Notes: generated by a model from the sequence alone, not told the origin. A DNA stretch of 64,000 nucleotides from an uncultured Candidatus Saccharibacteria bacterium (GCA_964437185.1 CAYTFU010000003.1:26409-90408); one strand, 5' to 3'; shown: positions 2,895 to 59,259, numbered from the stretch's first letter. Numbers and translations: made by a program.

Positions 2895-4136
2895 CTAGTT
2901 GATCGTCACAAAGCTCGCGCTCGAAGACGCTGCGTTGTTCGAGCCGTCCTTCGACTCGACGACGTAGTAGTACGTAGTCGAAGCCGTGAGGCCTGTGAGG
3001 TTGAAGCTGTGCGCGAGCGTGTACGCAGCGTTCACCATGGAAGGCGCAGTGTTCATGTCGACCGGGGAAACGGTCGAGTAGTACACCTTGCCGTTCGCGG
3101 CCTCGTTGGTCGTCCAGAGAATCGTAGCTGTCGTGCTTCCGATTGGTGAAGCAGAAACCGCAGAGATCACTGGCGCCGTGGAATCAGGCGTGAGTGTGGT
3201 GAAGGTCATGTCGCTTGAAGTTGCAACATTGCCCCTGATGTCGGTCGACATCACGCGGTAGTGATACACCATCGATGGCAAAAGTCCCGTAAGATTGGTG
3301 CTGTGTGCACCTGCGAGGGCAAACATCGGTGCGGTCGTAGAACCGTACGAAGCGGTCGTGCCGTACTCGATCTTGTCCGTCGCACTTTCGTTGGTCGTCC
3401 AATTGATCGTCGCACCAGTCGTCGTGAGGTTGGTCGATCCAACTGCTGAGATCACAGGAGCGGTCTTATCCTTCCCGCGCTCTTCTCGATCGGTATCATC
3501 ATCGTCCATTTTGTCCTCAATCCCCTTCGGCAAGTTTTGCCTCTGACACTCCGGGATTTCAGGCCGTTCACCACCATGCTTTCTGAGCCACCCAGGAGCA
3601 ATCAGGTGCCCAGGCGGGACGATAGCGCAGAGTCTTCCGTGGGCGCGAGCAGACGTGGATGTCGCACTTGTCGACGTGCCGTTCTGCCATGCGAGTGGAT
3701 GCTCGCGAAGAAATTCGTTGAGCTTCTTCAGGGTCTTTGGACCTACAAAGCCCGCCTGCTCGATGCCGTGCTTCTTCTGAAATCGCTTCACGGCTTCTGC
3801 AGTAAGGCGACCGTAGTAACCCGAGATGGTGCCTTCTGGATAGATCGAAGGATCTGCCGCAAGAAGCGCCTGAAGGGCAGTTACATCCTCACCGGTTGAG
3901 CCCTGACGAAGCGCGCGAGCGAGATCGACGATTGCCGTCTTTTGATCCTGCATGAGGGTCTTCTGTTGCTGCGCGAGCGATTGCTGCTGCTCTTGAAGCG
4001 CTTTCATTTGCGCCTGGAGACTTTTAATCTGTTCAAGCAAGGCCTGAACATTGGTTGGGGTTTGTGCAAATGCGGCGACCGGCATAAGGACGCCGAGCAT
4101 TACCGTACCCGCGAGAATCTTTTTAATTCTTGTCAT
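2895..4136 (-). CDS. Secreted protein with peptidoglycan-binding domain (PG_binding_1-like) and two Fn3-like repeats
   Basis: N-terminal signal peptide; central motif GEDVTALQALLAADPSIYPEGTISGYYGRLTAEAVKRFQKKHGI; C-terminal duplicated module TAPVISAV...TTATI.WTTNE...YGTT. Confidence 0.6.
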   Translation of the reverse strand: MTRIKKILAGTVMLGVLMPVAAFAQTPTNVQALLEQIKSLQAQMKALQEQQQSLAQQQKTLMQDQKTAIVDLARALRQGSTGEDVTALQALLAADPSIYPEGTISGYYGRLTAEAVKRFQKKHGIEQAGFVGPKTLKKLNEFLREHPLAWQNGTSTSATSTSARAHGRLCAIVPPGHLIAPGWLRKHGGERPEIPECQRQNLPKGIEDKMDDDDTDREERGKDKTAPVISAVGSTNLTTTGATINWTTNESATDKIEYGTTASYGSTTAPMFALAGAHSTNLTGLLPSMVYHYRVMSTDIRGNVATSSDMTFTTLTPDSTAPVISAVSASPIGSTTATILWTTNEAANGKVYYSTVSPVDMNTAPSMVNAAYTLAHSFNLTGLTASTTYYYVVESKDGSNNAASSSASFVTIN

Positions 4137-4319
4137 ATAATTGTTCTAACTTTTAATAGACTACTAATGCGCACACGTATTGAAGACGAATCTACCGTAC
4201 TTCCCTTACTGGACACCGCCCTAAAATCGGTGCCAAATACGTATGCTCATAGTTTACCATGCATTTTTTATACCCACGAAACGCCCAATGCCCCTCGACG
4301 GCTTTTCGCACGGGTTTCG

Positions 4320-4415
4320 CAAGGGTAACCCTTGTGAAAAGGGTTACCCTTGTTTTTGAACCGCGCACGGGGGATGTCGGCAGTAGGGGGAATGGGTAAT
4401 CAAGGGTTACCCTTG
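4320..4415. repeat. REP family 1 cluster: three copies of the 15-nt palindrome CAAGGGTWACCCTTG at the 3' flank of RAYT-1
   Basis: Units at 4320-4334, 4338-4352 and 4401-4415. The last overlaps the RAYT stop codon. Confidence 0.85.
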
Positions 4416-5120
4416 ATTGTTGCGGATGGTGAGCCACTCGTTGAGCTCCCGACCCATGTCGCGCACTGACGTAAATTTCCATGGAAACGGTTCGGGCTTA
4501 ATGATTTTTGACTGAACCCTCCGAAGCGGATGCATGTAATCTTGCAGGCTAGAATACTGATATTCCTCCAAAAACGCCGCACCCTTACGTACATCCACAA
4601 TGCCGTTCTTTTTCCACGTCCCTCCATCGGGCGCTAACTTGATCGGGTTGAGGTGAATGTAGGAAAACAGGTATTGCAGATAACGATCTTCATGTACGTG
4701 CTCCGCCTTAAACGGGCCTTGCATGAGTGACCCCACGCGCTCGTACTTCTTATTGAAATACATCGAATATGCTGTTGTAACCTTCAGCATAAATTTGGAT
4801 ATTCCGACCTCACTGTGCGATTGACGCGCAAGAATGTGAAAGTGGTTTGGCATAAGGCACCACGCCCCAATGTCGATCAATCGATTGTCGATATCGAGTG
4901 ACGCGAGTCGCTCGTATGTAAACCCGCGAATGAGGTATGCGCCTATATTTACGGGGGTCTTGGAGTTGCAAAGATACATGAGCAACACCATTCGCTGATA
5001 ATCCGCCTCGTCTGCGAAGATAGTTCGCTTTTCGACTCCGCGATTGTAAAGGTGGTAGATTTCTCCTTCCGCTAGTGCCAATCCTCGCTCCATATGAGCA
5101 TCATACCACCCCACCAGCAA
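4407..5120 (-). CDS. REP-associated tyrosine transposase (RAYT; IS200/IS605 TnpA Y1 HUH family)
   Basis: YHLYNRG N-motif, HUH motif WCLMPNHFHIL, catalytic Tyr region YIHLNPIK. Immediately flanked on both sides by REP palindromes. Confidence 0.8.
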   Translation of the reverse strand: MLVGWYDAHMERGLALAEGEIYHLYNRGVEKRTIFADEADYQRMVLLMYLCNSKTPVNIGAYLIRGFTYERLASLDIDNRLIDIGAWCLMPNHFHILARQSHSEVGISKFMLKVTTAYSMYFNKKYERVGSLMQGPFKAEHVHEDRYLQYLFSYIHLNPIKLAPDGGTWKKNGIVDVRKGAAFLEEYQYSSLQDYMHPLRRVQSKIIKPEPFPWKFTSVRDMGRELNEWLTIRNNQG

Positions 5121-5224
5121 GGGTAACCCTTTTCACAAGGGTTTCACAAGGGTTACCCTTGATAATTCGTGGCTATTAGACACCCTCTTTCGGGGCTAAT
5201 GGGCTTCAACAAGGGTTACCCTTG
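5118..5224. repeat. REP family 1 cluster at the 5' flank of RAYT-1, including a composite ~45-nt unit
   Basis: CAAGGGTAACCCTT at 5118-5131, a partial unit at 5136-5143, a full unit at 5147-5161, and the composite CGGGGCTAATGGGCTTCAACAAGGGTTACCCTTG at 5191-5224. Confidence 0.85.
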
Positions 5225-5242
5225 ATTTTGTGCGAATAACCC

Positions 5243-5527
5243 TTACCTCCCGCTCCTCCGCTCGAAAACAAGCGGCCTATTTATAAACATCGCGCCGATG
5301 GCCCACAGCCTCAACGGTGACCGCATTTTGCTCGCAGAATACACAACTCGGTAGTCGCCGACCCGTAACTTATACAAACCTTTAAGCTCGCGATGGAGGC
5401 GTTCTGGTACGACGTCGTCGTAGTTCTCTTCAAACCAAGCAACTTTCTCTATAATTCTTCGCGCAATAATCTGATCAAGTGCTTCGAGGTCTCGCAAGGC
5501 ATCTGCAGTCCACCTAACGGACGCCAT
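5243..5527 (-). CDS. Type II toxin, RelE/ParE family
   Basis: 94 aa; RelE/ParE-like pattern ...LKGLYKLRVGDYRVVY...; overlaps the upstream small ORF by 14 nt. Confidence 0.7.
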   Translation of the reverse strand: MASVRWTADALRDLEALDQIIARRIIEKVAWFEENYDDVVPERLHRELKGLYKLRVGDYRVVYSASKMRSPLRLWAIGAMFINRPLVFERRSGR

Positions 5528-5702
5528 TCTTCTTCATTACTGCAGCGTGCGGCGTGATTTTTTGTTTCTTCTGCATTCGCTTCCTTAGCTCAGTTGCAAA
5601 CGGTCTCTGCAATTTGAGGCCGGAATCTGGGTCACCAAAAAACTCGAGTATTTTCTGCTCGACAAGATTCCCGAACTTTTTATTGAGCTCTGCTGTGGTC
5701 AT
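5514..5702 (-). CDS. Putative antitoxin of the RelE/ParE module (small, basic C-terminus)
   Basis: 62-aa ORF immediately upstream of and overlapping the toxin gene. Assignment is by position; no clear family signature was read. Confidence 0.45.
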   Translation of the reverse strand: MTTAELNKKFGNLVEQKILEFFGDPDSGLKLQRPFATELRKRMQKKQKITPHAAVMKKNGVR

Positions 5703-5747
5703 GTGTTGAATATATCACGCGAACCACCGACTGCAACGACCTCCGCC

Positions 5748-5888
5748 AAAAGGGTTACCCTTGATAATTTTTAACTATCTGACACCCGCATTCGGGGCTA
5801 ATGGGCTTCAACAAGGGTTACCTTTGTTTTTTGAGGAGGGCTGGGAGCCGGTTCTCGGGGCTAAAGGTCTTCATCAAGGGTTACCCTT
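5748..5888. repeat. REP family 1 cluster (three units, two inside the composite ~45-nt element)
   Basis: AAAGGGTTACCCTTG at 5748-5763, composite CGGGGCTAATGGGCTTCAACAAGGGTTACCTTTG ending at 5828, and GGGGCTAAAGGTCTTCATCAAGGGTTACCCTTG ending at 5888. Confidence 0.85.
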
Positions 5889-5896
5889 GATTGCCT

Positions 5897-7309
5897 TTAC
5901 TGCACAAGCACTTGGAAGTTTCCTCCAGTAATGGCTACGGGACCTGATATTCCAGCAGGAGGTGTAGGTGAGGTGAAAACTACGCTGATAGTATCCCCGC
6001 TCCCCGGCTCACCGCCATCGACAATGGTGAACGTCGCGGCAACAGGCGTCTTGGCTTGGCCTTGCGTCGTGCCCTCGGCAGTGAAGATGATGGTGCTTCC
6101 GCCCCCATCAATCGAGGTAATATTGTCGAAGTGATAGCCGACGCCGCTTATGTGGTCGACAAGCTCAAACTCGCCCTGAGGATCACCTTGCTCATCGCGC
6201 CAGACACTACCGCCGAAAGTCCAGAAGGTCGTGAAGGTCTTGCTGCTCTTCACTTTGTAGTTGCCACCACCCGTCACATATTGGATGTCGGGCATGCAGG
6301 AGTAGGTGTCAACACTCAGACTACCTGTGTTATTAGGGTAGTACACATCATTAATCAAGAACGATGCCTGATTGCCGTCTCCAACAACGAGCGCCTTGTA
6401 CTCGTGCGGGGGAGTAAAGACACCCCACGGCGTCGTACCGTTGAAGGTTAGGTCGAGCAATGTCGTGCCGAGATATTCGTACGTCGACACAGCGTCTGTC
6501 CAGCCGACCGACGTTGGTGTTCGGTAGGAGTATCGAGCATCGAAGTTGATTCCGTCTCCCGCATTCGCCATACCGTACGCGCGCAAGATATAGTTGGTTC
6601 CCGTGTCGAACGTCATGCTTGAGAGCGTGGGTGATGGATTATTGGCAGCTACGGTAACGGTTTCGAGCACGGTAGATTGTGTTGTATATGCAGGACATGC
6701 CACAGGAGGAGCAATTTCCGTTACGACTACATTATCGAGCGCGGGGCCGTAGTACCCTTCAACAGTACTTGCAAACGTCAGTGTAGTGCTCAGTCCCGTT
6801 GCCACAAATGTATAGGTCTTCGTCTCCCACTGCATATCGGCAAGTGTTGTGCCGTGAGCTACGGTGTCGTAGGAGTAGCCTGTTGATGCTCCGCCAGTCG
6901 CGCTCACGGTTAGTGTTTTGAGGGACGGGCCACCAGCGGGGTTACCCGAAAGATCGAAGGAGACTTCATAACTTGCTCCGGGAACCGTTGCAAAGGTCTG
7001 ACTAATGGCACCCGGCGTGTAGCCCGTAAGGTCAAGACTCCGACCCCCCCCTGGCGATGACTGCCAATAACTGCCGATATAATCAATTGTTCCTGATTCC
7101 ACTGTCCAACCAGCAATATTAGTAGAATCAATTGCTGCCAACGTTATAAAAACGCCAGGGGATGTGCCTGTCTCGAAACCTCCGTTGGTCACTGCTGCTG
7201 CAGCAAGAGCAGGTGCCATAAGGGCCAAGGGCGTGCAGAGCGATGCGGCGAGAGCAATCTTTGTAAAGAATTTTTTCATATTATTTTTCTGATTAATTTT
7301 AGTAAGCAA
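5897..7309 (-). CDS. Secreted protein with an N-terminal DUF642/galactose-binding-like domain
   Basis: Signal peptide; VTNGGFETG...IAGWTV.SGTIDYIGSYWQ...G.RSLDL.G...G.ISQTF.T.PGASYEVSFDLSGNP pattern; Thr/Gly-rich remainder. Confidence 0.45.
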   Translation of the reverse strand: MLTKINQKNNMKKFFTKIALAASLCTPLALMAPALAAAAVTNGGFETGTSPGVFITLAAIDSTNIAGWTVESGTIDYIGSYWQSSPGGGRSLDLTGYTPGAISQTFATVPGASYEVSFDLSGNPAGGPSLKTLTVSATGGASTGYSYDTVAHGTTLADMQWETKTYTFVATGLSTTLTFASTVEGYYGPALDNVVVTEIAPPVACPAYTTQSTVLETVTVAANNPSPTLSSMTFDTGTNYILRAYGMANAGDGINFDARYSYRTPTSVGWTDAVSTYEYLGTTLLDLTFNGTTPWGVFTPPHEYKALVVGDGNQASFLINDVYYPNNTGSLSVDTYSCMPDIQYVTGGGNYKVKSSKTFTTFWTFGGSVWRDEQGDPQGEFELVDHISGVGYHFDNITSIDGGGSTIIFTAEGTTQGQAKTPVAATFTIVDGGEPGSGDTISVVFTSPTPPAGISGPVAITGGNFQVLVQ

Positions 7310-7340: not shown

Positions 7341-10300
7341 TTAGTTGTCCTGATGCGCCTGTTGGTTGCCCATGTTGATGAAGAGTGGCCCGACTGTGTT
7401 GAGGACAACTTTGTCATCCTTATCCCGAATAATCATGTAAGCCTGATCTTCGCCTCCCGGCTCACCAGCGTCATTGAACATGAATTGAATGGTGGCATCC
7501 TCTACTCCATTGAAGCGTCCAGTGCCCACTCCCGTGATCGTGTCGAATTCGGCATTCGGCATTCTTGGGTCAATCTCAGGATCATCTGTACACTGTGCGC
7601 TATTAAGCGTCAGCAAGTGGAATTTCTGCGCTTTCTTGCCGTTTATGCCCCAGTTGACCTCGAGGCGATTCGGTCCGCGACTTACGTCACAGTGAAGGGT
7701 AAAGCCATGTGTCACACGCGTCTCTTTTGCAGATCGGCCTGTAACTCCGCTCAACACGACACCAGTCTCAAGTGTGTTAGGAAACACACTCCCGCCACCG
7801 GTGAAGTGACCCGGTGTGTCGTTGTTGGTGAGCGTACAGGTCATGTTTTCGCCAAGCGCGACAGTCGTATCGCCGTTTACATCACAATCTCCACTAAACC
7901 CTTCGAAGATATAGCCGGGGAGCTGTGTCTCTCCTGCGGTGTATGTACCTGGATTTACAGGAACCGCTACTCCAGAAGAAACTGGAGACCCTTCAAGCGT
8001 GAGATTGAAGTCATTAGGGTTCGCAATTCCACCGTTGCCATTATCAACCACCTTTACCACGGTAATGTACGCCTGCTGGTCGTCATTGGTGATGGTGCAA
8101 GTGACGGTCTCGCCGAGGCCAATCGATACCGTGCCGTCATTGTCGCCATTGGTGCACGACCACGAAGAAGCAGCGTAGCCAGTAGGACCGGCCGATTCAG
8201 AGAGAACATAAGAGCCGGCATCGAAAGACGCACCACTCGAAACATCAGGAGAGCCTGCCGCGCCCGGGCCAGTGATTGAGGTCGGCCCAGTTGCCGTGAG
8301 GGTCCACGCTGATTCGAGAGCCGTGCCGCCGCTGTTGTTCACAACTACTTTGTTGAGGTGAAGTACGGGCGCGATGTCATCGTTGGTAATCGTACAAGTG
8401 ACATTGTCTCCCGCCCCGAGCGTGACGGTATCGCCATCGTCCTGCGTCACACCAACGCATACCCAGTCAGAAGCAGCGTAGCCGAGAGGGCCGCCACTTT
8501 CGGAGAGGTCGTACGAACCAATCGGAACAATCGCGCTCGTGATGGAGAGATCCCCTTCTTCGCCCGATATTGTGGTCTGGTCGTTGTCTGTCGCTTCAAT
8601 CGTCCAGTCGGTATCAACCGCCGTACCACCATTGTCTATCACCACTTCCTTTTCAAGCGTAAGTGTCGGAAGTTTGGTGTTCGTGAAGGTGCAGGTGACT
8701 GTTTCTCCAGCGGCAAGGTTGATCGAGGAAGGATCGGATGCGTCATCGCACGTCGCAGATGTGAGATCCCAGCCAGCTGGTACCGTCTCAGATACTGAGT
8801 AGGTGCCAGCGTCAATATCACCAGAGTCATTCGATCCGCCATTTGCGAGTACGAATCCATCCTGGTCATAGGAAGCGGCGAAGTCGAAGTTGCCGTCGCC
8901 ACCAACAGTCACTTTGTTAACAATTATTTTGCTGTCCTTCGTGTTGGTGAAGGTGCACGTGACATTCTCACCCGCCGCGACGTTGAAGGTTGCGACGCCT
9001 GTGCCGATATTGCCAGAACTATTGCTGTCGTCGCACGTAATGTCAGTGAGGTCCCAGCCTGAAGTCACAGTCTCGGTTGAGTCATAGGTACCCGGGATGA
9101 CCTCCTGCGTCGCAGTATCATTGTCGTTCAAGATGCCAGAGACATCACCGGTGAAGGTGAAGTCAGCATCGCCGCCAATGGTCTGCTTCTCGATGGTAAT
9201 CGAGCCGTGCTTCGTATTTGTGAAGACACAGGTGACTGTCTCACCCGCCGTGAGGTCGATAGTGGCTGCACTTTCGATGCCCTCGATTGAACTTGTGCAG
9301 ACCGTCGACGTGAGGTCCCATCCCGCAAGCTCAGTCTCCGCGACAGAGTACGTCCCCGGATTGAGGTCGCCCGAGTCGTCTTGCTGGCCATCGGAAATAT
9401 CCGCGTCTCCGCTGCCATACGAGAGATCGAAGTCGAAGACCGCAAGATCGCCATCGGGTATTGTCTGCTTCTCGACGATAATATTGGCATCCTTTTGATT
9501 CGTAAATGTACAGGTGATGGTTTCCCCCGCGTCGAGGTCAAGATCTTGTCCATCAGTATCTACAGGGTCACCGAGCGAGCTCGCGCAGCTAATCGATGTG
9601 TTGTCCCAACCAGCTTCCGCTGCTTCCGTGACATCGTAGACACCAGGAGCGAGGTCGCCAGAGTTGTTTGCGGTGGAACCGTCAGCGAGAACAAACGGCA
9701 AGCCGTAGTCAGTGGTGAAGCCGAACTCGGTGAGGTCGCCTGCAGGATCAGTCACCTTGTCGACGATGATAAACGCATCGGCTTCGTTGGTGAACGTACA
9801 CGTGATCTCCTCACCAGCGTTCGGAGTAATCTGGTTTACAGGATCTCCATTGCTGCATGTCGCACTCAAGAGATCCCATCCTGCTGGCACTGGAGTTTCT
9901 GCCATCGTGTAGGTGTTGTCTGGGTCGAGATCACTAAATACTTGTGAAGCTGTATTTGCGACCGTCGTCAATTGCGCACTCGAAGGAAGGCCAGCGCCCG
10001 TCATTACGAAGTCAAACGTGCCATTCCCACCGATTGTATTTTTTACAAGCGTGATCTTTGCAAGCTTCTCGTTTGTGAATGTGCACGTAACAGTTTCACC
10101 TGGCTCAACATCTATACTATTAATTGCCTCACCCTTGTCACATGTCGCGCTCTCCTGTTGCCAACCCGCAATAGCTGCTTCTGAGACCGTGTACGATCCG
10201 GGAACGACTTCGAAATCTCTTTGTTTCGGCAAGGCATTCCCTATATCCCCGTCGTCATCGAGAAGAAATGCACCAATGCTACCGCTCCCCGTAAAGGAGA

Positions 10301-13232
10301 AATCTTGCGTGCTGTTTGGTATTGCATTCTTGATAATTACGACATGACCACGCTTTGTGTTCGTGAATGTACACGTGACTGTTTCGCCAGCGCCAACATC
10401 AATATCCCCCACCGTTTCGCCCTGATCGCAGGTAGCCGAAGCCTGATCCCATCCGGCCGGAATCGTTTCTGTAACATTGTACTTGCCTGGAATTACAGAC
10501 TGACTGTTTGGTGCTGCAGCATCCGTAAGCGAAAAACTGACGTAACCAGCTCCTCCGGCAGTAAAGCTAAAGCTCTGAGTATCGCCGCTAGGATTGGTTA
10601 CTTTATCGACGATGATTGTGCCGTTTTGAGTATTGGTGAAGGTACAAGTGACGGTCTCCCCAGCTTGTAGTGAAATATTATTCACTGCACTACCGTCACT
10701 ACAGCTCGTATTCGTCAGGTTCCATCCGGCCGGAATGTTGACCTCCGATACTGAATACGTGCCTGGCGCAAGTATGCCGCTGTCACTGGCCGCAGCGGCG
10801 TCCGTAAGGTTGAAGTTGCTAACGCTCCACGAAGGGTCAAATTCAAATGATTGGTTCGAGCCCGAAGGATCAGTCACCTTGTCGATTAGAATCTTACCCT
10901 GCTTCGTATTAGTGAACGTACAGGTCACGTGCTCGCCTGCGCCGACAGTGATGGACTGTATGGTTTCGTCGAGGTCACAAGTTGCAGACGTGAGATCCCA
11001 GCCTGTAGGAACCGATTCTGTGATGTTGTACTCACCAGGTACGAAGTTATTAACGGTCTGACTTGCGGTACCACCTGAAGTGGTGAGCTGTGTAACGCCT
11101 GTGCTTCCAGTAAAGTCGAATGTGCCGTCACCACCAATTGTGTTCTTCACGATAGTGATTGAGCCGCGCCTCGTGTTGGTGAAGGTGCAAGTAATAGTTT
11201 CTCCCGCATCGAGCTCAAGGGTGCCTATAGTTTCAGTGTCTCCTATTGAGCTCACGCACGTGGCGGATGTGAGATCCCATCCCGTTGGAACAGTTTCAGA
11301 GATCGAATAAATGCCAGCATTTAGTGACTGACTGTTCGGTTGCGCAGCGTCCGTAAGAGAGAAGCCATTGTACCCAGTGCCACCCGCAGTAAAGCTGAAG
11401 CTTTGCGCGTCCGCAGCTGGGACGGTTACTTTATCGACAATAATCGTACCTTGCTGGAGAGTATTCGTGAATGTGCAAGTCACCGATTCGCTTGCAGCAA
11501 GATTGATAGTAGCGGTTCGAGTATTGAGGTCAACTGTTGAATTTGTAGTCGGATCAACGCACACAAGGTTTGTGAGGCTATACCCCGCCGCAGATGCCTC
11601 TGACACCGTGTATGCTCCCGGCGCTAACGCTGAGAATACCCGTGTGTTTGGAAGCGACCCATCGCCATCGTCGTCAAGCGAGAAATTCGTTAGGCCTGCG
11701 CCAGTTGTGGTAAAAGCAAAATCCTGTGAATCATTGGGCACAGTATCTTTAATGATTGTGATGGTCGCGTTATTTGGGATAAGAATATCTGCTCCTTTTA
11801 TCTGATTGTCTTGTGAGCCGCCCGTGCCGTCGAACTTAACCGTCTTGATGTGGTATGGGCCACCGCTAATCTGAGACGAACCGAGCCCAGGGCCCCAACT
11901 CACACCCGTCCCATCGCCTGTTACAGCTAGGTGCCCGCCGAAGAATAGCAAAATGTCGCAACCGTCCGCCGCGCTACACCCTGAAGTCGTGAACGGAATT
12001 GTTACGGTAACGACCGAGTCGCCTGTGTCACCATTCGCGGCCACGTCGTGCGCAAGAGTTATCGCACCTGGAGTAATAGTCCCTCCGTCGATGTAAATCG
12101 AGATATTACGAGGAGCTCCAAAATCCGCCATATAGGCATTCTCCTTGTTAGTCTGAGCTGCTGAGGAGCCATCCTTACTATCGAACGGATCGTTTGGAAT
12201 AGGTACAAGATGGTCAGGGGCGCTTCCTGAGGGATTTAGGTTCGTACATGCAGCTGCGTCTGCCCCCGCAAGATCCGAACAAGCGTTCAAAGTTGGAGTT
12301 CCAGGCGCAAACGATCCATTACCCTGTGCGCCCCCAGTGTTTGGATTCACAGTCGTCAAAAAGTCGTACGCGTGAATGCCGGCCTTCGTGTACTGATACG
12401 TGAACGTAATGCTGTGGGCCCCGTCCACAACTTTCGCGTCACGAAAGAGCAGCCTTTGAGGAACGGTCATTCCCTCGTAATAAATTGAGTTTGATTGCTG
12501 GACAATCGAGCCGATCCAATTGCACTCTCCCGCCGTAGGATTATTGTTCGAGCATTGGGTAAAGCTCGTTTGCAGTGGGTCTATAACACTGGTTGTGGCC
12601 AATACTGCACCATCCCCGTCCTCAGCAGAAATAGTATAAAGAGGAGTAAAAAGATCGGACAAAACGTAGTTATACGTAAACACACCTGTCTCATCAGTCA
12701 CGATGTTAAATACTTCCGTGGAATAAATTTCTGAAGGGTTGAGAAGTGATCCACCTACAATTCTCAGAACAATATTCTGTATTGCAGTAAAAAACCTTCC
12801 AAAAATAGAGACGGTTTCCTCAGGATTATATTCGGCCTTTTCTGTCGAGAGCTCGGGTGAAGGGGTCGAGGCTGCTACGGCAGCGCTTTGATCGGTAGAA
12901 TCGTTGGAGGATGATTCCGTGGTAGTCGTGGTAGAAGTGTCTTCTGGTGCGTCAACAGGAGCGTCTGTCTGCTCGGAGGTTGTCGAATCCGTACTCCCTT
13001 CACTCGCCGTAGAATCTTCCGCAACGGTATCTGCAGGTGCGTCTGCTGTCGCATCACTACTAGCGGTCGTCTCTGTAGAAGTGTCCGCAGGAGATTCGGT
13101 CGCGGCTACCGTAGTGTCCGTTAGCTCCTCGGCATACGAAACGGAATGTAAAAAAAGCATCATAAAACCCATCGATGAAAAAAGCATCAACGCTGCGATG
13201 GTCTTGCGCACATTTATTGTTGAGAGAGTCAT
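7341..13232 (-). CDS. Giant secreted surface protein (1963 aa) with an acidic S/T-rich linker and 14 tandem ~95-aa prealbumin/SpaA-like repeats, each with a conserved Cys pair
   Basis: Signal peptide MTLSTINVRKTIAALMLFSSMGF...; 14 repeats ending in the motif [VIM]TC[TV][FIL]TN across about 7650-11600; no internal stops. Confidence 0.75.
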   Translation of the reverse strand: MTLSTINVRKTIAALMLFSSMGFMMLFLHSVSYAEELTDTTVAATESPADTSTETTASSDATADAPADTVAEDSTASEGSTDSTTSEQTDAPVDAPEDTSTTTTTESSSNDSTDQSAAVAASTPSPELSTEKAEYNPEETVSIFGRFFTAIQNIVLRIVGGSLLNPSEIYSTEVFNIVTDETGVFTYNYVLSDLFTPLYTISAEDGDGAVLATTSVIDPLQTSFTQCSNNNPTAGECNWIGSIVQQSNSIYYEGMTVPQRLLFRDAKVVDGAHSITFTYQYTKAGIHAYDFLTTVNPNTGGAQGNGSFAPGTPTLNACSDLAGADAAACTNLNPSGSAPDHLVPIPNDPFDSKDGSSAAQTNKENAYMADFGAPRNISIYIDGGTITPGAITLAHDVAANGDTGDSVVTVTIPFTTSGCSAADGCDILLFFGGHLAVTGDGTGVSWGPGLGSSQISGGPYHIKTVKFDGTGGSQDNQIKGADILIPNNATITIIKDTVPNDSQDFAFTTTGAGLTNFSLDDDGDGSLPNTRVFSALAPGAYTVSEASAAGYSLTNLVCVDPTTNSTVDLNTRTATINLAASESVTCTFTNTLQQGTIIVDKVTVPAADAQSFSFTAGGTGYNGFSLTDAAQPNSQSLNAGIYSISETVPTGWDLTSATCVSSIGDTETIGTLELDAGETITCTFTNTRRGSITIVKNTIGGDGTFDFTGSTGVTQLTTSGGTASQTVNNFVPGEYNITESVPTGWDLTSATCDLDETIQSITVGAGEHVTCTFTNTKQGKILIDKVTDPSGSNQSFEFDPSWSVSNFNLTDAAAASDSGILAPGTYSVSEVNIPAGWNLTNTSCSDGSAVNNISLQAGETVTCTFTNTQNGTIIVDKVTNPSGDTQSFSFTAGGAGYVSFSLTDAAAPNSQSVIPGKYNVTETIPAGWDQASATCDQGETVGDIDVGAGETVTCTFTNTKRGHVVIIKNAIPNSTQDFSFTGSGSIGAFLLDDDGDIGNALPKQRDFEVVPGSYTVSEAAIAGWQQESATCDKGEAINSIDVEPGETVTCTFTNEKLAKITLVKNTIGGNGTFDFVMTGAGLPSSAQLTTVANTASQVFSDLDPDNTYTMAETPVPAGWDLLSATCSNGDPVNQITPNAGEEITCTFTNEADAFIIVDKVTDPAGDLTEFGFTTDYGLPFVLADGSTANNSGDLAPGVYDVTEAAEAGWDNTSISCASSLGDPVDTDGQDLDLDAGETITCTFTNQKDANIIVEKQTIPDGDLAVFDFDLSYGSGDADISDGQQDDSGDLNPGTYSVAETELAGWDLTSTVCTSSIEGIESAATIDLTAGETVTCVFTNTKHGSITIEKQTIGGDADFTFTGDVSGILNDNDTATQEVIPGTYDSTETVTSGWDLTDITCDDSNSSGNIGTGVATFNVAAGENVTCTFTNTKDSKIIVNKVTVGGDGNFDFAASYDQDGFVLANGGSNDSGDIDAGTYSVSETVPAGWDLTSATCDDASDPSSINLAAGETVTCTFTNTKLPTLTLEKEVVIDNGGTAVDTDWTIEATDNDQTTISGEEGDLSITSAIVPIGSYDLSESGGPLGYAASDWVCVGVTQDDGDTVTLGAGDNVTCTITNDDIAPVLHLNKVVVNNSGGTALESAWTLTATGPTSITGPGAAGSPDVSSGASFDAGSYVLSESAGPTGYAASSWSCTNGDNDGTVSIGLGETVTCTITNDDQQAYITVVKVVDNGNGGIANPNDFNLTLEGSPVSSGVAVPVNPGTYTAGETQLPGYIFEGFSGDCDVNGDTTVALGENMTCTLTNNDTPGHFTGGGSVFPNTLETGVVLSGVTGRSAKETRVTHGFTLHCDVSRGPNRLEVNWGINGKKAQKFHLLTLNSAQCTDDPEIDPRMPNAEFDTITGVGTGRFNGVEDATIQFMFNDAGEPGGEDQAYMIIRDKDDKVVLNTVGPLFINMGNQQAHQDN

Positions 13233-13446: not shown

Positions 13447-13722
13447 CTATGCTGCGGTCGGTGTTGCGCTTCCGACGGAGACGGGGATACCACCTTTTAT
13501 GTTCGTTTGTAGTTTAGCGAGAAATTCTCGCTGCGACGAAACATCGAGGATCTCAACGCCGACGACATCTCCCTTGGCATCAAAATCTACAACAAACGTA
13601 TCGGAATTCTTATGAGTACGGGCAACCTTCTCATCTGTCATTTTGAGGTACACAGCGTCGGCCAGCATGTCGTATTTTATGTCCATAATTTTATAAATTA
13701 TCTGGATAATATGCTGTGACAA
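13447..13722 (-). CDS. DUF2283-family protein (antitoxin partner of DUF4258)
   Basis: MDIKYDMLADAVYLKMTD... matches the DUF2283 N-terminal signature; overlaps the upstream DUF4258 gene by 32 nt. Confidence 0.65.
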   Translation of the reverse strand: MSQHIIQIIYKIMDIKYDMLADAVYLKMTDEKVARTHKNSDTFVVDFDAKGDVVGVEILDVSSQREFLAKLQTNIKGGIPVSVGSATPTAA

Positions 13723-13948
13723 TTACGTACTCCACATCTTTCTTGGTTCCCCATTTGAAGTATATAACCTCTATTACCCTCGCGTCATCAACCTTCTTTC
13801 GGACCAGTACTCTACCTTCAAAAGCGTGCTTTGTAAAGTCTGGCGAACTGATCGCTCGCTTGATGTGATCAACATCAATGCCTCGTTCCACCAATCGGCT
13901 CTGAAAATGCGCGGTGAAGCGAAGTCTCATAGTAATAGTAAGCGACAA
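13691..13948 (-). CDS. DUF4258-family protein (putative toxin of the DUF4258/DUF2283 pair)
   Basis: 85 aa, HFQSRLVERGIDVDHIKRAI...; the conserved pairing with DUF2283 is established knowledge. Confidence 0.6.
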   Translation of the reverse strand: MSLTITMRLRFTAHFQSRLVERGIDVDHIKRAISSPDFTKHAFEGRVLVRKKVDDARVIEVIYFKWGTKKDVEYVIVTAYYPDNL

Positions 13949-14093
13949 ATGGTGAGCGTAGGGTTCCAGTATAGCCTACTTGTGGACATTCACTTGATTT
14001 CGCCTTGAGCTAGGGCATAGTTGGGATACAACGGCTTCGGCCTCGAGGCGGCGGAAACGCCACCTCTTATATTTTGCACTTCAACAAGGGTAA

Positions 14094-14140
14094 CCCTTAC
14101 AGAAACCCTTGCGGAAAGGGTTACTCTTGCCTAAGCTTTT
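14094..14140. repeat. REP family 1 doublet
   Basis: CAAGGGTAACCCTT at 14094-14107 and AAAGGGTTACTCTTG at 14126-14140. Confidence 0.8.
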
Positions 14141-14862: not shown

Positions 14863-14877
14863 CAAGGGTTAACCTTG
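14863..14877. repeat. Degenerate REP family 1 unit
   Basis: CAAGGGTTAACCTTG. Confidence 0.5.
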
Positions 14878-14958
14878 CCCTTTTATGCCTGTGGATATTC
14901 ACTTGATTTTCATCCCCTATGATATACACTTTGTGGACAAATGGCCTTCGGGCTCGGG

Positions 14959-14996: not shown

Positions 14997-15398
14997 CTAG
15001 AGAATTGACCTCACCCGCTGACGAATCTCCTCATAGGTGTTTTTAGGTATTCGGCCCATCTTGACGAGCAACCGCTTTGAATCGAGTAGGCGCACCTGCG
15101 AAAGCAAAGCTGTGCTCTCGCCGCCAAGAAACGCAAAAGTGTAATGGTATTTACCATCGCGTTTCGCTGTGGTGAGCGGTATTCCAACAAATACATTCTT
15201 ACTGTACTTTTTTAGCACGAGTACTGGCCGAGCAAACTTCTCCCCCTTGCCATCTTGCTCGAAACCAATGTTGACACCAATGGCACACCACCATACCTCG
15301 CGTTCGTAAAAATAAAGATTAAACTCACTTTTACTGGTAGATTTTTTTCGCTCGTTCCACGTATCGAAATCCTTTTTCATTTCGCACAATGTTGTCAC
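14997..15398 (-). CDS. PemK/MazF-family toxin (orphan, no adjacent antitoxin ORF)
   Basis: EVWWCAIGVNIGFEQDGKGEKFARPVLVLKK....VGIPLTT matches the MazF/PemK signature (GEVWWVDLG..GSEQ.G.RP.LV...VIVAPLTT). Confidence 0.6.
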   Translation of the reverse strand: MTTLCEMKKDFDTWNERKKSTSKSEFNLYFYEREVWWCAIGVNIGFEQDGKGEKFARPVLVLKKYSKNVFVGIPLTTAKRDGKYHYTFAFLGGESTALLSQVRLLDSKRLLVKMGRIPKNTYEEIRQRVRSIL

Positions 15399-15420: not shown

Positions 15421-15453
15421 CAAGGGTAACCCTTTCAGAAAGGGTTACCCTTG
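15421..15453. repeat. REP family 1 doublet
   Basis: CAAGGGTAACCCTT at 15421-15434 and AAAGGGTTACCCTTG at 15439-15453. Confidence 0.85.
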
Positions 15454-22152: not shown

Positions 22153-22179
22153 TCATGTGGGGTTTCGTAAATCCCACGT
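22153..22179. repeat. REP family 2 palindrome (3' flank of RAYT-2)
   Basis: CATGTGGGGTTTCGTAAATCCCACGTA. Confidence 0.75.
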
Positions 22180-22206: not shown

Positions 22207-22860
22207 TTACTCGAGCAGGGCGATTTCCATTTTCCAAGAAATATCTTTTATGAAGCGCTGTGTTTTTGATACGACACCACCGTATGCCTCCTCGAATAAT
22301 TCTCTGTTCAGAATCGACGGGAAATTTACCTGTCCCGAATAGTCAGGAAAACTGCTCCAGCGATATGTCCGTAGAAATGCCATGGCCTTTCTTTCACTTG
22401 CGATTCCGCCCTCGCGCCAGCCTTTAGCCCCTTCGAGAAAGTCGAGGGGATTGAGATGAATGTAATGCAGGATGTGCAAAAAATGCGCTTCGCGCTCGAT
22501 CAGTACCTTCTTGGTGCGTCCCTGAAACAGCGCTCCCTCGCGTTCATGAAGTTCGTTGTAATAGTTGGCATACCCAACATTGAGCTTGCGAATAAATTTT
22601 GTTAGTCCTCCGTCCTCTATTTCGGATACGAGTAAATGGTAATGATTTTTCATAAGACACCACCCGTGTAAATCAATCAGCCGCTTTCGCTTCGCCAACG
22701 TGGGGTTTCGTAAATCCCACGTCTTTCGTCTATATGCGTCTGGCGCAGGCCGAATATCATTGAATTCGTATATGTCTCGCACAAAGCGAGCGCAGTGCGC
22801 ATCGTCATCAAAAATTGTTCGCTTATCTACACCCCTATTGAGTACATGATACAGCTCCAC
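22207..22860 (-). CDS. REP-associated tyrosine transposase (RAYT-2; IS200/IS605 TnpA Y1 family) carrying an internal REP-2 copy
   Basis: YHVLNRG, HUH motif WCLMKNHYHLL, YIHLNPLDF; internal palindrome at 22698-22724 encodes ...TWDLRNPTLA... in frame. Confidence 0.75.
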   Translation of the reverse strand: MELYHVLNRGVDKRTIFDDDAHCARFVRDIYEFNDIRPAPDAYRRKTWDLRNPTLAKRKRLIDLHGWCLMKNHYHLLVSEIEDGGLTKFIRKLNVGYANYYNELHEREGALFQGRTKKVLIEREAHFLHILHYIHLNPLDFLEGAKGWREGGIASERKAMAFLRTYRWSSFPDYSGQVNFPSILNRELFEEAYGGVVSKTQRFIKDISWKMEIALLE

Positions 22861-22876
22861 TCCAATAGTGTACTTT

Positions 22877-22907
22877 CAACGTGGGATTTACGAAATCCCA
22901 CGTGGGG
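22877..22907. repeat. REP family 2 perfect hairpin (5' flank of RAYT-2)
   Basis: CAACGTGGGATTTACGAAATCCCACGTGGGG. Confidence 0.8.
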
Positions 22908-30856: not shown

Positions 30857-30889
30857 CAAGGGTAACCCTTGAGAAAAGGGTTACCCTTG
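30857..30889. repeat. REP family 1 doublet
   Basis: CAAGGGTAACCCTTG at 30857-30871 and AAAGGGTTACCCTTG at 30875-30889. Confidence 0.85.
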
Positions 30890-35578: not shown

Positions 35579-35593
35579 CAAGGGTTACCCTTG
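35579..35593. repeat. REP family 1 unit
   Basis: CAAGGGTTACCCTTG between ftsB-like and lepA. Confidence 0.8.
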
Positions 35594-39255: not shown

Positions 39256-39762
39256 GTGTGTTTCTGCGTAATGAGCCGGATTCTGTGCCGATTCTGTCCA
39301 CCGCAGGTGGTTACAGAATCGAGCATCCTGCGAAGCCTTGGCGAAGCAGGATAGTACCATAGTACTTCTCCGCTAAAGCTACGAAGCATACTCGATTTTG
39401 CAACTGCCTGCGGCAGGCAAAATCGGTAGCAACCATGTATCTAGCCCCGAGATTGCTCGCGGGGTCGAGCGACTCTCCCGTGAGATATCCAATTGGTGTA
39501 TCCCATGGGCACGGTCTTGCACGCGGGTAGGATTTTTGCCGTTGCACCCCCAACGTCTCCATTGGGGCTAATGCGATGAGATGACATCTCATCGCATCCC
39601 CTTGCTTCTCAGCTTGGGCGTCTCTGTTCGCATCCCTAGGATTACCCCGGCGGGCGTTACCCGCTACCGTCCTCCACCTTCCTTTCGAAACGTGGGCGTG
39701 TCCGGACTTTCCTAACCATCTCTCCGAAGATCGATGGCTCAGCTGCCTAACGCAGAGAACCA
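39256..39762 (-). ncRNA. rnpB: RNase P RNA (bacterial type A-like) with an inserted palindromic hairpin
   Basis: On the minus strand: P4 5' strand GGTTAGGAAAGTCCGGACACG, P4 3' strand CACAGAATCCGGCTCATTACGCAG, P1 pairing GTTCTCTGCGTTA / TTACGCAGAAAC, internal GGGTAACGCCCGCCGGGG. Ends are approximate. Confidence 0.7.
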
Positions 39763-59219: not shown

Positions 59220-59259
59220 GGCGGGGTTCTATCGTTGAACCCCGCCGCAACGCTTTTTA
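59220..59259 (+). terminator. Rho-independent terminator closing a ~260-nt non-coding region downstream of rnj
   Basis: GGCGGGGTTC-TATCGT-TGAACCCCGCC then GCAACGCTTTTTA. Confidence 0.6.

Follow-up and report, generated by a model that had tools for sequence, protein, structure and literature searches.

The RAYT-1 locus

The window analysed here, a 64,000-nt stretch of a Patescibacteria genome, contains two paralogous genes, RAYT-1 and RAYT-2, each with a different palindrome. The palindrome of RAYT-1, the 15-mer CAAGGGTWACCCTTG (REP), and that of RAYT-2 (REP-2) occur at the sites listed below with the neighbouring features; positions are those of the window, and the strand is given where a feature has one.

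4320–4415: downstream REP module, with an inverted doublet (4320–4334/4338–4352), a 48-nt linker and REP 4401–4415
4407–5093, minus strand: RAYT-1, a 228-aa class-2 Y1 HUH endonuclease, with the HUH motif H84-F-H86 and the predicted catalytic Tyr145 in YIHLNP
5100–5108, minus strand: putative extended −10 element read from the sequence (minus-strand letters TGGTATGAT), separated from the ATG by 6 nt
5118–5224: upstream REP module, with REP 5118–5132 (12 nt before the −10), a half-site remnant (5136–5144), REP 5147–5161, a 48-nt linker and REP 5210–5224
5243–5527, minus strand: ParE-family toxin (Pfam ParE_toxin, 33.4 bits)
5514–5702, minus strand: small antitoxin-like ORF, forming with the toxin a cassette (5243–5702) between REP modules
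5749–5889: three-REP array beyond the ParE cassette, with REPs at 5749, 5812 and 5875 and a 63-nt period
14085–14129: degenerate REP doublet between divergent genes, next to a DUF4258/DUF2283 pair
14863–14877: REP singleton with one mismatch, between convergent genes and 3′ of a terminator-like hairpin
15421–15453: REP inverted doublet, 13 nt past the stop of a lysyl-oxidase-like gene and upstream of a PemK/MazF toxin gene
22157–22179: REP-2 copy, about 28 nt past the RAYT-2 stop codon
22207–22860, minus strand: RAYT-2, a RAYT-1 paralogue with its own palindrome, with the motifs NHYH, YIHLNP and WSS
22700–22722: REP-2 copy in RAYT-2, in frame (it encodes KTWDLRNPT) and within the variable region that precedes the HUH strand
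22881–22903: REP-2 copy with the sequence ACGTGGGATTTcgtAAATCCCACGT, upstream of RAYT-2, which starts at 22860; its hairpin core has an offset of −13
30857–30889: REP inverted doublet between VIT1 and SET, which are separated by a 76-nt spacer
35579–35593: REP singleton, 13 nt past the lepA stop codon

A first-pass annotation had placed an HUH tyrosine transposase with an HFH motif and a catalytic Tyr region at 4407–5120, bracketed by REPs. The ORF is real, HFH and YIHLNP are both present, and REP modules lie on either side of it, but the start has to be revised: judged from the sequence, the true start is almost certainly ATG 5093 rather than TTG 5120, because RAYT-1 then fits the family N-terminus MxRxxxFxxGExYHxYNRG. 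The profile search proposed for this ORF returned Pfam Y1_Tnp (PF01797) at 29.7 bits (cut-off 23), whereas the score against NCBIfam REP_Tyr_transpos (NF047646 equivalog) was 43.9 bits, under the 80-bit cut-off. Residues H84, H86, Y145, N149 and P150 were invariant when RAYT-1 was aligned among 31 homologues, and the C-terminal tail is helical and contains a YSS motif. The closest PDB fold to the AF2 model (pLDDT 87.6) was 4ER8, the complex of E. coli TnpA-REP with a REP hairpin (Foldseek E 2.2e-6, TM 0.69), with IS608 and ISDra2 TnpA ranking behind it (E about 1e-3).

The extended −10 element would give rise to a leaderless or very short-leader RAYT-1 mRNA, and TGnTATAAT was found at the matching position in most of 90 homologues. 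A generic sigma-70 scan of the window did not detect the RAYT-1 promoter because it has no −35 element. The stop codon of the gene, TAA, is the centre of REP 4401–4415. Read on the gene strand, both flanks consist of REP, 48 nt, REP, a short gap and an inverted REP, and are thus direct copies of one composite module. The upstream 5118/5147 pair forms a long hairpin (−24.3 kcal/mol and z −3.9 for the 131-nt fold) and the downstream doublet a 14-bp hairpin. Same-strain Logan contigs end at 5157 and 5218, both inside REPs of the upstream module.

No tnpB partner was found at RAYT-1, whose neighbours are the ParE toxin and a PG-binding protein; the ParE/antitoxin cassette is a passenger or neighbour outside the REP mechanism. 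RAYT-1 had one and the same context in four independent assemblies, and its copy number was assessed on these assemblies and the window.

REP copies, their siting and insertion polymorphism

At up to one mismatch, the 15-mer gave 16 matches in the 64-kb window compared with 0.00 expected in 100 shuffles, and a seventeenth copy, at 14115, was found at two mismatches. The copies start at 4320, 4338, 4401, 5118, 5147, 5210, 5749, 5812, 5875, 14085, 14115, 14863, 15421, 15439, 30857, 30875 and 35579. At least 14 copies had been reported initially, at coordinates that are essentially correct, and the suspected over-representation is borne out within the window. Copies were counted over 64 kb plus about 20 kb, from a contig of at least 250 kb. 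Nine of the 17 are grouped around the RAYT-1 ORF and 11 lie more than 600 nt from the gene, with a distal density in this genome of about 1.8 copies per 10 kb (window). All 17 are extragenic, in the roughly 10% of the window that is non-coding (89.6% is coding), and a gene 3′ end lies within 60 nt at seven of the eight REP sites.

The A-centred and T-centred forms of the palindrome are two orientations of one element. Inverted doublets consist of an A-form, 3 nt and a T-form, the spacing between 15-mers being 3 nt and not the 4–5 nt first described, and form long hairpins of high stability (z between −6.4 and −6.6; for 15421–15453, −17.9 kcal/mol and z −6.6). The copies previously located at 14094–14140 make up a degenerate doublet, 14085/14115. 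A REP, a 48-nt linker and a second REP recur with a 63-nt period at 4338–4415, 5147–5224 and 5749–5826–5889, and the four resulting 78-nt units share a mean column identity of 78%; in the 5749–5889 array the linkers are related, with CGGGGCTAATGGGCTTCAA adjoining the REP. A longer composite unit had been counted three times: this 34-mer occurs twice exactly, and the third occurrence carries three mismatches. The GT[AG]G foot was absent from the flanks of all 17 copies, and the stem starts CAAGGG. A separate palindrome of the same genome lies inside an RNase P RNA helix and has no known cognate enzyme.

Comparison with relatives revealed insertion polymorphism. In their syntenic loci (LepA 87–90% identical), no REP was found in about 80 kb, where the same strain has three. 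The SET/VIT1 site is empty in relatives, the two genes overlapping in L148 and lying 8 nt apart in L150, and the spacer is present only together with the REP doublet; the lepA-side REP (35579–35593) is likewise missing from the orthologous site. In L155, the ParE cassette directly adjoins the PG-binding gene, with neither RAYT nor REP, and comparison with L155 and L154 shows the REP-bounded RAYT-1 cassette to be an indel. As syntenic relatives lack both the REPs and the gene cassette, both are insertions. The same doublet was present on 62 metagenome contigs with GC contents of 37–58%, and several of these copies lie in frame within an SMC gene loop.

Gene-proximal hairpins in Patescibacteria homologues

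Patescibacteria contain a great many homologues of RAYT-1, which at E ≤ 1e-30 and 50% identity make up about 1,150 clusters. Among 90 homologues, 79% carried a perfect hairpin of at least 6 bp at −90 to −10, compared with 10.7% in shuffles, and 60% carried one of at least 8 bp, compared with 0.9%. This upstream hairpin is locus-specific and sits some 50 nt before the start codon, just ahead of the extended −10 box; it ends 8–15 nt before that box, which corresponds to the −35 position. A hairpin at the stop codon that matches the upstream one was found in about 70% of the 90 homologues, and a third copy lies in frame within the gene in about 23–30%. RAYT-2, which is 39.5% identical to RAYT-1 (tblastn) and matches Y1_Tnp at 24.0 bits (cut-off 23), carries its in-gene REP-2 copy at the same position as these in-gene cognate hairpins.

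Upstream and downstream hairpins agreed within a locus in 76% of cases, compared with 7% between loci, and the apex read AGG-N5-CCT in 55 of 72 loci. Protein similarity correlated with apex similarity (Mantel r 0.35, reached by 0 of 2,000 permutations). Several homologues are bracketed as RAYT-1 is: L005, from another organism, holds an orthologue 74% identical to RAYT-1, with different neighbours and the same core palindrome on both sides; in three metagenome loci (L132, L142 and L145) the homologue has AAGGGTWACCCTT doublets on both sides, and in L043 it is likewise flanked on both sides by a palindromic repeat. A distal hairpin copy was detected in 11 of 73 loci, at 0.17 per 10 kb compared with 0.057 for non-cognate cores. 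Hairpin dispersal is the exception in this family, and this genome is among the exceptions; in most members, the hairpins may serve their own gene rather than a repeat population.

Relation to known systems and interpretation

The closest parallel is E. coli TnpA-REP (Nunvar 2010; Ton-Hoang 2012; Messing 2012, 4ER8), which belongs to subclass 2.2, or Bertels Group 2. RAYT-1 shares its single-domain HUH/Tyr fold and Y-x3-NP motif, and its gene is bracketed by its own palindromic repeats, which in the window are extragenic, lie mostly past stop codons and are arranged singly or in inverted pairs; gene copies are few in both systems, here as sampled in the window and four assemblies, and divergent paralogues each have their own repeat. 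However, RAYT-1 is only about 11% identical to TnpA-REP in structural alignment, falls under the NCBIfam equivalog cut-off and exceeds it in length by about 65 residues, ending in a helical tail. Its REP, a short palindrome of perfect symmetry (7+1+7), lacks the GT[AG]G foot and has no bulges, and is placed at a fixed promoter distance and at the stop codon. RAYT-1 is thus not a canonical RAYT/REP of the E. coli or Pseudomonas type.

Y-x3-NP is the motif of class 2 TnpA-Y1 proteins (PMC6006769); YIHLNP is invariant in the homologues and also present in RAYT-2. Going by motifs and length only, RAYT-1 appears to fit subclass 2.1 (Quentin et al. 2018, PMC6006769), which corresponds to the Group 1 RAYTs (Bertels 2017, PMC5581495) and largely to TIRYT/TIRtrons (Di Nocera 2013, PMC3733652). 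The subclass signature of NH[YF]H, FQ, Y[IV]HLNP, an SS tail motif and a median of 238 aa (PMC6006769 Table 1) is matched by NHFH, (F/M)Q (MQ in RAYT-1), YIHLNP, YSS and 228 aa. As in subclass 2.1, inverted or terminal repeats flank the gene at fixed distances and the paralogues are divergent (about two per genome at about 49% identity there; here two in the window, with 34–59% identity between paralogues of one genome); as in Group 1, where flanking 16-mers number about 12 per replicon, the flanking repeats are moderately abundant. Subclass 2.1 yielded no REP-like structures in the survey by Quentin et al. (PMC6006769), whereas the Patescibacteria clade has short perfect hairpins with the AGG-N5-CCT apex, which have proliferated in this genome. 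The GGGGWSAS motif common to the Di Nocera TIRs (PMC3733652) was not found in the RAYT flanks here.

Two further systems offer partial likenesses. In the REPIN-RAYT system of Pseudomonas fluorescens SBW25 (Bertels & Rainey 2011, PMC3116915), as here, inverted doublets fold into one long hairpin, and a genome has several RAYT paralogues, each with its own repeat family flanking the gene. At 33 nt, with a 3–12-nt spacer, the present doublets are much shorter, the 78-nt REP-linker-REP form, in which both REPs share the same centre-base orientation, is additional, and the copy number sampled is small. Subclass 2.4 RAYTs (PMC6006769) also carry a cognate repeat in frame within the transposase gene, as RAYT-2 and 23–30% of the family do; by contrast, the in-gene copy here has a single constant position, ahead of the HUH strand, and takes the place of a 5-residue motif, [QEK]-G-x-[STPA]-[LF], instead of lengthening it.

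We consider it probable that this Patescibacteria genome harbours a REP/RAYT-type system composed of RAYT-1 and its cognate palindrome CAAGGGTWACCCTTG. On single-stranded DNA, the palindrome would form a 6–7-bp hairpin with the apex AGG-N5-CCT, and the gene sits inside a REP-bounded unit, at about 4320–5224, with one hairpin before the putative −10 and another supplying the stop codon. On the model of IS608 TnpA and E. coli TnpA-REP, from which we also take the cleavage chemistry and strand specificity, RAYT-1 would bind this hairpin on transiently single-stranded DNA, and Tyr145 would cut beside it while His84 and His86 hold a metal ion. Rejoining by RAYT-1, which we infer to be the enzyme that moves REPs, would then copy or move them to new sites, mostly just past stop codons. 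The mobile forms would be REP singletons, 78-nt REP-linker-REP units and the inverted doublets, which as 33-nt hairpins resemble REPINs.

Alternatively, the locus could be an autonomous IS200/IS605-like element (hairpin, gene, hairpin; about 4320–5224), the dispersed palindromes being solo ends or MITE-like derivatives. Such an element would account for the REP-bounded indel relative to L155 and L154, the different context of the L005 orthologue and the compact, stereotyped unit with hairpins about 50 nt before the ATG and at the stop. Moreover, the two hairpins are direct in 23 and inverted in 18 of 41 informative loci, the direct arrangement being that of the left and right ends of IS608; Group 1 RAYTs are the most IS-like (Bertels 2017, PMC5581495); and the HUH/Tyr fold, subterminal hairpins at both ends and presumed single-strand chemistry are shared with IS200/IS605 TnpA (IS608, ISDra2; subclass 1.1). 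We nevertheless regard it as unlikely. IS200 has the tyrosine motif Y-x3-Q instead of the Y-x3-NP of class 2 (PMC6006769 Table 1), and IS200/IS605 proteins are 130–150 aa long without a tail, encoded by multiple, about 99% identical copies, often with the tnpB gene that is absent here. A search of the window and of 80 genome loci yielded no near-identical RAYT gene copies, and paralogues inside one genome are 34–59% identical with differing hairpins. The RAYT-1 structure is nearer to 4ER8 than to IS608 TnpA, and gene-less repeats far outnumber the gene in the window. Over the loci sampled, RAYT-1 does not behave as an insertion sequence, given its divergent paralogues, its constant context in four assemblies and the synteny of some orthologue groups even where flank proteins are just 45–75% identical.

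It is also conceivable that the palindrome is a double-stranded operator or terminator, which the Y1 protein, by way of the helices of its C-terminal tail, or some other dimeric regulator would bind so as to autoregulate the gene, the other copies being regulatory or terminator sites and not mobile. The palindromes are perfect and symmetric, and would be equally compatible with a dimer on double-stranded DNA; the upstream copy occupies the −35 position, 8–15 nt before the −10 box, and the downstream copy overlaps the stop codon. Within the window, several copies score terminator-like, with T runs after them, a stop codon lies just before seven of the eight sites, and most family members show no dispersal. 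Against this stand the absence of the element from orthologous sites of close relatives, one spacer existing only with the doublet, and the copies in frame within SMC genes. Tandem 63-nt arrays and 33-nt doublets are the behaviour of a repeat element, assembly contigs end at REP copies, and all seven REP singletons share the same centre-base orientation on the plus strand, which a symmetric dimer site would not need. We regard a primarily regulatory palindrome as improbable, although autoregulation by the two gene-proximal hairpins and mobility may coexist.

Returning to the probable REP/RAYT-type system, it belongs to a known kind, and the variant found here is undescribed for this bacterial group, represented by a tiny-genome groundwater bacterium (Candidatus Kaiserbacteria). 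More tentatively, the class-2 Y1 HUH clade of Patescibacteria could constitute a self-referential module and not simply a transposase; the hairpin of the module would have escaped as a REP/REPIN population in a minority of lineages, this genome included. Each gene may hold up to three copies of one hairpin, at the −35 position of a leaderless promoter, in frame at codon ~52–62 and at the stop codon. That the three copies stay identical while the hairpin diverges between lineages would point to enzyme-mediated homogenisation or to autoregulatory binding to the gene's own DNA or mRNA. If this is true, the escaped hairpin inserts in frame even into essential genes, such as that encoding SMC.

Copies, forms and placement of REP-1

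REP-1 (CAAGGGTWACCCTTG) is a family of extragenic repeats with hairpin-forming potential and a bias towards gene 3′ ends. Its over-representation, proposed in the first-pass annotation, was confirmed: 16 matches with at most one mismatch occur in 64 kb, and dinucleotide-preserving shuffles contained none. A 17th, more degenerate copy at 14115 was found at two mismatches. Because the palindrome has a 7+1+7 layout, the A-centred and T-centred forms are its two orientations. Copies occur as singletons, inverted doublets and a 63-nt periodic form.

Multi-copy arrangements of REP-1
4320/4338, 15421/15439 and 30857/30875: inverted doublets (A-form, 3 nt, T-form)
5118/5147 and 14085/14115: degenerate inverted doublets
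4338-4415, 5147-5224 and 5749-5826-5889: 63-nt periodic form, two same-orientation REPs with a 48-nt linker between them

A 34-nt composite unit described earlier as occurring three times has two exact copies; the third carries three mismatches. In folding of the doublets as single-stranded DNA, each gave a single 14-16-bp hairpin (-17 to -18 kcal/mol, z approximately -6.5), the geometry of a REPIN. Rfam at gathering thresholds returned tRNAs only and no RNA family matching the REP units. A CRISPR-like nature of the 63-nt array was ruled out, given that its 48-nt ‘spacers’ are mutually related and that it comprises merely 2-3 units.

Coding sequence makes up 89.6% of the window in a greedy ORF map, and all 17 copies are extragenic; the sole contact with a gene is the copy at 4401, which overlaps the stop codon of RAYT-1, the Y1 HUH protein gene. 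Seven of eight independent sites are no more than 60 nt from a gene 3′ end. All seven singletons present the T-form on the + strand, a uniformity that, at about five independent sites, is suggestive only. The overall density is about one copy per 4-6 kb.

Other repeats and cassettes share this region. The 17-mer GGAYATTCACTTGATTT occurs twice (13984-14000 and 14893-14909), 16-85 nt from REP-1 copies. A 1,963-aa ORF (7341-13232) consists of repeats of about 270-290 nt (…TCTFTNT… modules); these account for most of the direct-repeat output and have no relation to the REPs. Within 10 kb there are three toxin-antitoxin-type modules, ParE with a small antitoxin (5243-5702), DUF4258/DUF2283 (13447-13948) and PemK/MazF (14997-15398), and REP-1 copies adjoin each of them. 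Giant SpaA-like surface proteins are encoded in the same region, which looks like a variable island.

RAYT-1 and hairpins flanking its family

RAYT-1 gene and flanking elements
4407-5093, minus strand: RAYT-1, 228 aa from ATG 5093
4401-4415: REP centred on the RAYT-1 TAA stop
5100-5108: putative extended -10 box of RAYT-1, TGGTATGAT

The gene previously placed at 4407-5120 stands with a different start, as TTG 5120 falls inside a REP and the family alignment gives ATG 5093. The expected Y1 profile match was obtained (Pfam Y1_Tnp, 29.7 bits; cut-off 23). H84-F-H86 and Y145-I-H-L-N-P are invariant across 31 homologues. Searching the PDB with the single sequence gave nothing at E ≤ 1, and a profile search gave only ISDra2 TnpA and 4ER8, the E. 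coli RAYT on a REP hairpin (E ~0.3). Because these sequence searches were nearly blind, structure prediction and Foldseek were required. The AlphaFold model (pLDDT 87.6) has the HUH/Tyr fold and motifs; its top match is 4ER8 (E 2.2e-6, target TM 0.69), with IS608 and ISDra2 TnpA next (E ~1e-3). A tblastn search of plasmids gave only remote (27-35%) ‘transposase’ matches in Proteobacteria and Firmicutes, of no help for subclass assignment. The window’s LepA shares 87% identity with proteins of Candidatus Kaiserbacteria.

The TAA stop lies at the centre of a REP, which therefore encodes the last residues of the protein (NQG and the stop). Read on the gene strand, both flanks have the same layout (REP, 48 nt, REP, short gap, inverted REP), so that RAYT-1 is enclosed by a composite module present as two direct copies.

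A protein search with RAYT-1 yielded at least 7,973 matches at E ≤ 0.001 (7,973 of 8,000 scored candidates), about 225 aa long, with Paceibacterota, Nomurabacteria, Yonathbacteria and Minisyncoccia as named sources. Among 1.84 billion 50%-identity representatives, a profile search found 1,153 clusters at E ≤ 1e-30 and 13,394 at E ≤ 1e-10. We fetched 80 genome loci and analysed 90 genes; the best among the genome-contig matches listed is 50% identical to RAYT-1. Since the hairpins had been ascertained as perfect palindromes, stems were tested by positional enrichment against shuffles instead of covariation counting. Between -90 and -10 of the start, 79% of the 90 genes have a perfect hairpin of at least 6 bp, compared with 10.7% of shuffles, and 60% have one of at least 8 bp, compared with 0.9%. 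A hairpin lies within -20 to +50 of the stop codon in 70%, overlapping the stop in half of these.

Association of gene and hairpin, and their covariation, extend across the family. Upstream and downstream hairpins have the same sequence in 76% of loci, compared with 7% between loci. The apex AGG-N5-CCT recurs in 55 of 72 upstream hairpins (AAGG-GTAAC-CCTT in the window), and lower stem and loop vary by locus. Apex similarity follows protein similarity (Mantel r 0.35, reached by 0 of 2000 permutations), with a contribution from shared genome ancestry. Paralogues within a genome share 34-59% identity and differ in their hairpins, and some orthologue groups are syntenic despite flanking proteins of only 45-75% identity.

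Most of about 90 upstream regions aligned on the ATG (for example L103, L063 and L045) have TGnTATAAT, an extended -10 box, at a distance of 6-12 nt from the start and with no Shine-Dalgarno spacing. A box so near the start codon would imply leaderless mRNA across the family. The upstream hairpin ends 8-15 nt before the box and thus occupies the -35 position. For 4100-6000, a generic sigma-70 scan returned no promoter; it took the alignment of 90 upstream regions to reveal the -10 element.

The pairing of the RAYT-1 type with its palindrome recurs elsewhere. In L005, from another sample and with other neighbours, a 74%-identical orthologue is bracketed by copies of GAAGGGTWACCCTTC; the homologue in L043 (48% identity) has CAAGGGTAACCCTTG at each end. 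Scanning metagenomes for the REP-1 doublet recovered 62 contigs of 37-58% GC, among them Hainich-labelled ones and none from the window’s own organism. Three of these (L132, L142 and L145) encode a full-length homologue (at least 42% identity), bracketed by doublets on both sides. Across the 62 contigs, complementary outer flanks and spacers of 4-12 nt, often palindromic themselves, make each doublet one long hairpin.

Some doublets lie inside long ORFs. That the palindrome is a coding motif was ruled out by the variable, often palindromic spacers, by the complementary outer flanks and by SMC homologues lacking the segment. The doublet AAGGGTAACCCTT...AAGGGTTACCCTT is in frame in SMC genes (L103 6671-6704, L108 656-689, L129 8599-8632 and L136 281-314), at a head-domain loop (...DT-KGNPS(L/F)(T/P)KGYP-LLEF...); SMC proteins of other Patescibacteria loci, such as L125, lack these ~10 residues. 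In L103, SMC is directly followed by a RAYT homologue whose hairpin is a different one, GAAGGaccgaCCTTC.

Hairpins inside the genes

Many family members contain their own hairpin a further time, within the coding sequence. The gene’s own 13-nt core occurs inside 18 of 80 genes at two or fewer mismatches, and 14 copies are perfect. All lie at codon ~52-62 and all but one are in the phase xAA GGx xxx xCC TTx, encoding [Q/E/K]-G-x-[S/T/P/A]-[L/F]. For non-cognate cores the rate is 2.9% of tests, and matches fall into a bimodal distribution, either perfect or unrelated. At the aligned internal site, 22 of 74 genes have at least 5 of 7 palindromic pairs, compared with 1.3% at control in-frame positions. 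Overall, the internal hairpin is present in ~23-30% of family members (L007, L009, L011, L016, L018, L020, L033, L042-L046, L054, L063, L070, L082, L103 and L142) and covaries with the flanks; in L007 it repeats even an imperfection of the flanking hairpin. RAYT-1 has no copy at its internal site (RGFTY, 1/7 pairs). The internal copy may be kept identical to the flanks by gene conversion, enzyme-mediated exchange or selection for autoregulatory binding. Subclass 2.4 genes also contain in-frame REPs, but these are insertions that lengthen the gene, and their position differs (Quentin et al., PMC6006769).

Examples of internal copies, and RAYT-2 with its palindromes
L043: CAAGGGTTACCCTTG, encoding QGLPL; the window’s own REP type
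L142: GAAGGGTTACCCTTT, encoding EGLPF
L016: GAAGGTCGGACCTTC, encoding EGRTF
22207-22860, minus strand: RAYT-2, ~40% identical to RAYT-1; NHYH, YIHLNP; Pfam 24.0 bits (cut-off 23)
22881-22903: RAYT-2 palindrome upstream of the start
22700-22722: RAYT-2 palindrome in frame (KTWDLRNPT), same protein region as the family’s internal hairpin
22157-22179: RAYT-2 palindrome ~28 nt after the stop

RAYT-2, the paralogue, has the full hairpin triad, a 25-nt palindrome (REP-2, ACGTGGGATTTnnnAAAyCCCACGT) found nowhere else in the window. GCGATGAGATG-W-CATCTCATCGC is a third perfect palindrome, with two copies (39573-39595 and 59345-59367), and no cognate enzyme for it was seen in the window. The first copy belongs to a divergent RNase P RNA gene on the minus strand (39420-39747), which scores 69.7 bits with Rfam RNaseP_bact_a (E 6.6e-21, below the gathering score); the copy sits at a helix tip, and that helix differs in the relative L148. 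The second reads in frame as AMRCHLIA, close to the C-terminus of ORF 59257-60084.

Insertion polymorphism, proposed mechanism and relation to known systems

REP-1 insertions are polymorphic between the window strain and its relatives. The strain is assembled in ERR30942xx and ERZ272478xx. Its Logan contigs match the window at 100% identity and break off within REPs, at 5157 or 5218, and the same-strain locus L151 has both the post-lepA singleton and the SET-VIT1 doublet. In the syntenic relatives L148/L149 (LepA 90% identical), L150 (87%) and L154, ~80 kb contained no REP-1 core at up to two mismatches and no RAYT homologue. Between SET and VIT1, the window strain has a 76-nt spacer that contains the doublet; in L150 the spacer is 8 nt, and in L148 the two genes overlap. 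The RAYT-1 cassette is likewise an indel. The orthologous antitoxin-ParE pair of L155 lies next to the PG-binding gene, across a spacer of ~148 nt with neither REP nor RAYT, and the counterpart in the window spans 1,106 nt and is made up of RAYT-1 with a REP module on either side. Neither the toxin-antitoxin pair nor RAYT is present in L154. Before antitoxin-ParE, L155 (1-270) encodes the C-terminus of a class-1 IS200-like TnpA (…YVKNQGKHY…), followed by two canonical GTAG-footed hairpins, CCTCGCAGCtctGCTGCGAGGTAG and CCGCGACAGCtcgGCTGCGCGGTAG; the same island thus contains another Y1 system.

Dispersal beyond the gene is uncommon in the family. Beyond ±400 nt of the gene, a locus’s own 13-nt core was present again in only 11 of 73 cases, at 0.17 per 10 kb versus 0.057 for non-cognate cores and ~1.8 per 10 kb in the window. 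Most members thus resemble single genes flanked by hairpins, in agreement with Group 1 / subclass 2.1 in Bertels 2017 (PMC5581495) and Quentin 2018 (PMC6006769). The lineages with a proliferated hairpin are the window genome, L046 and the organisms of the 62 doublet contigs.

By analogy with IS608 TnpA and E. coli TnpA-REP, RAYT-1 would recognise the folded REP hairpin on single-stranded DNA, cleave next to it through Tyr145 with metal bound by His84/His86, and spread REP singletons and doublets by strand transfer. We regard as improbable an IS-like alternative in which the whole REP-bounded cassette still moves. The gene-proximal hairpins may also act as operator or terminator.

In function and architecture, the system probably works like REP/RAYT (a REPtron). 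RAYT-1 is a class-2 TnpA-Y1, its signature matching subclass 2.1 / Group 1 / TIRYT (NHFH, (F/M)Q, YIHLNP, YSS tail, ~230 aa; Table 1, PMC6006769). In contrast to canonical RAYT/REP, RAYT-1 falls below the NCBIfam equivalog for the E. coli-type REP-associated tyrosine transposase (43.9 vs 80) and REP-1 lacks a GT[AG]G foot. Unlike subclass 2.1, for which REP-like hairpins are reported absent, the system has them, and it lacks the GGGGWSAS terminal repeats reported for 2.1. Our literature search found no paper linking RAYT, REPIN or TnpA-REP to Patescibacteria or the candidate phyla radiation. To our knowledge, REP/RAYT descriptions come almost wholly from Proteobacteria, Cyanobacteria and Bacteroidetes.

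Ultra-small genomes of this kind are usually described as poor in mobile DNA, and here a streamlined one maintains at least two pairs of Y1 enzyme and palindrome. REP repeats break Patescibacteria metagenome assemblies and also insert into coding and RNA genes. The in-frame internal hairpin bears on the regulation of these enzymes or on the homogenisation of their repeats. Subclass 2.1 / Group 1 is the largest RAYT-like group, and published accounts give its DNA partner as absent or unclear; in the Patescibacteria clade the partner is obvious, stereotyped and covarying with the protein, which makes this clade a tractable model for what subclass 2.1 / Group 1 recognises.
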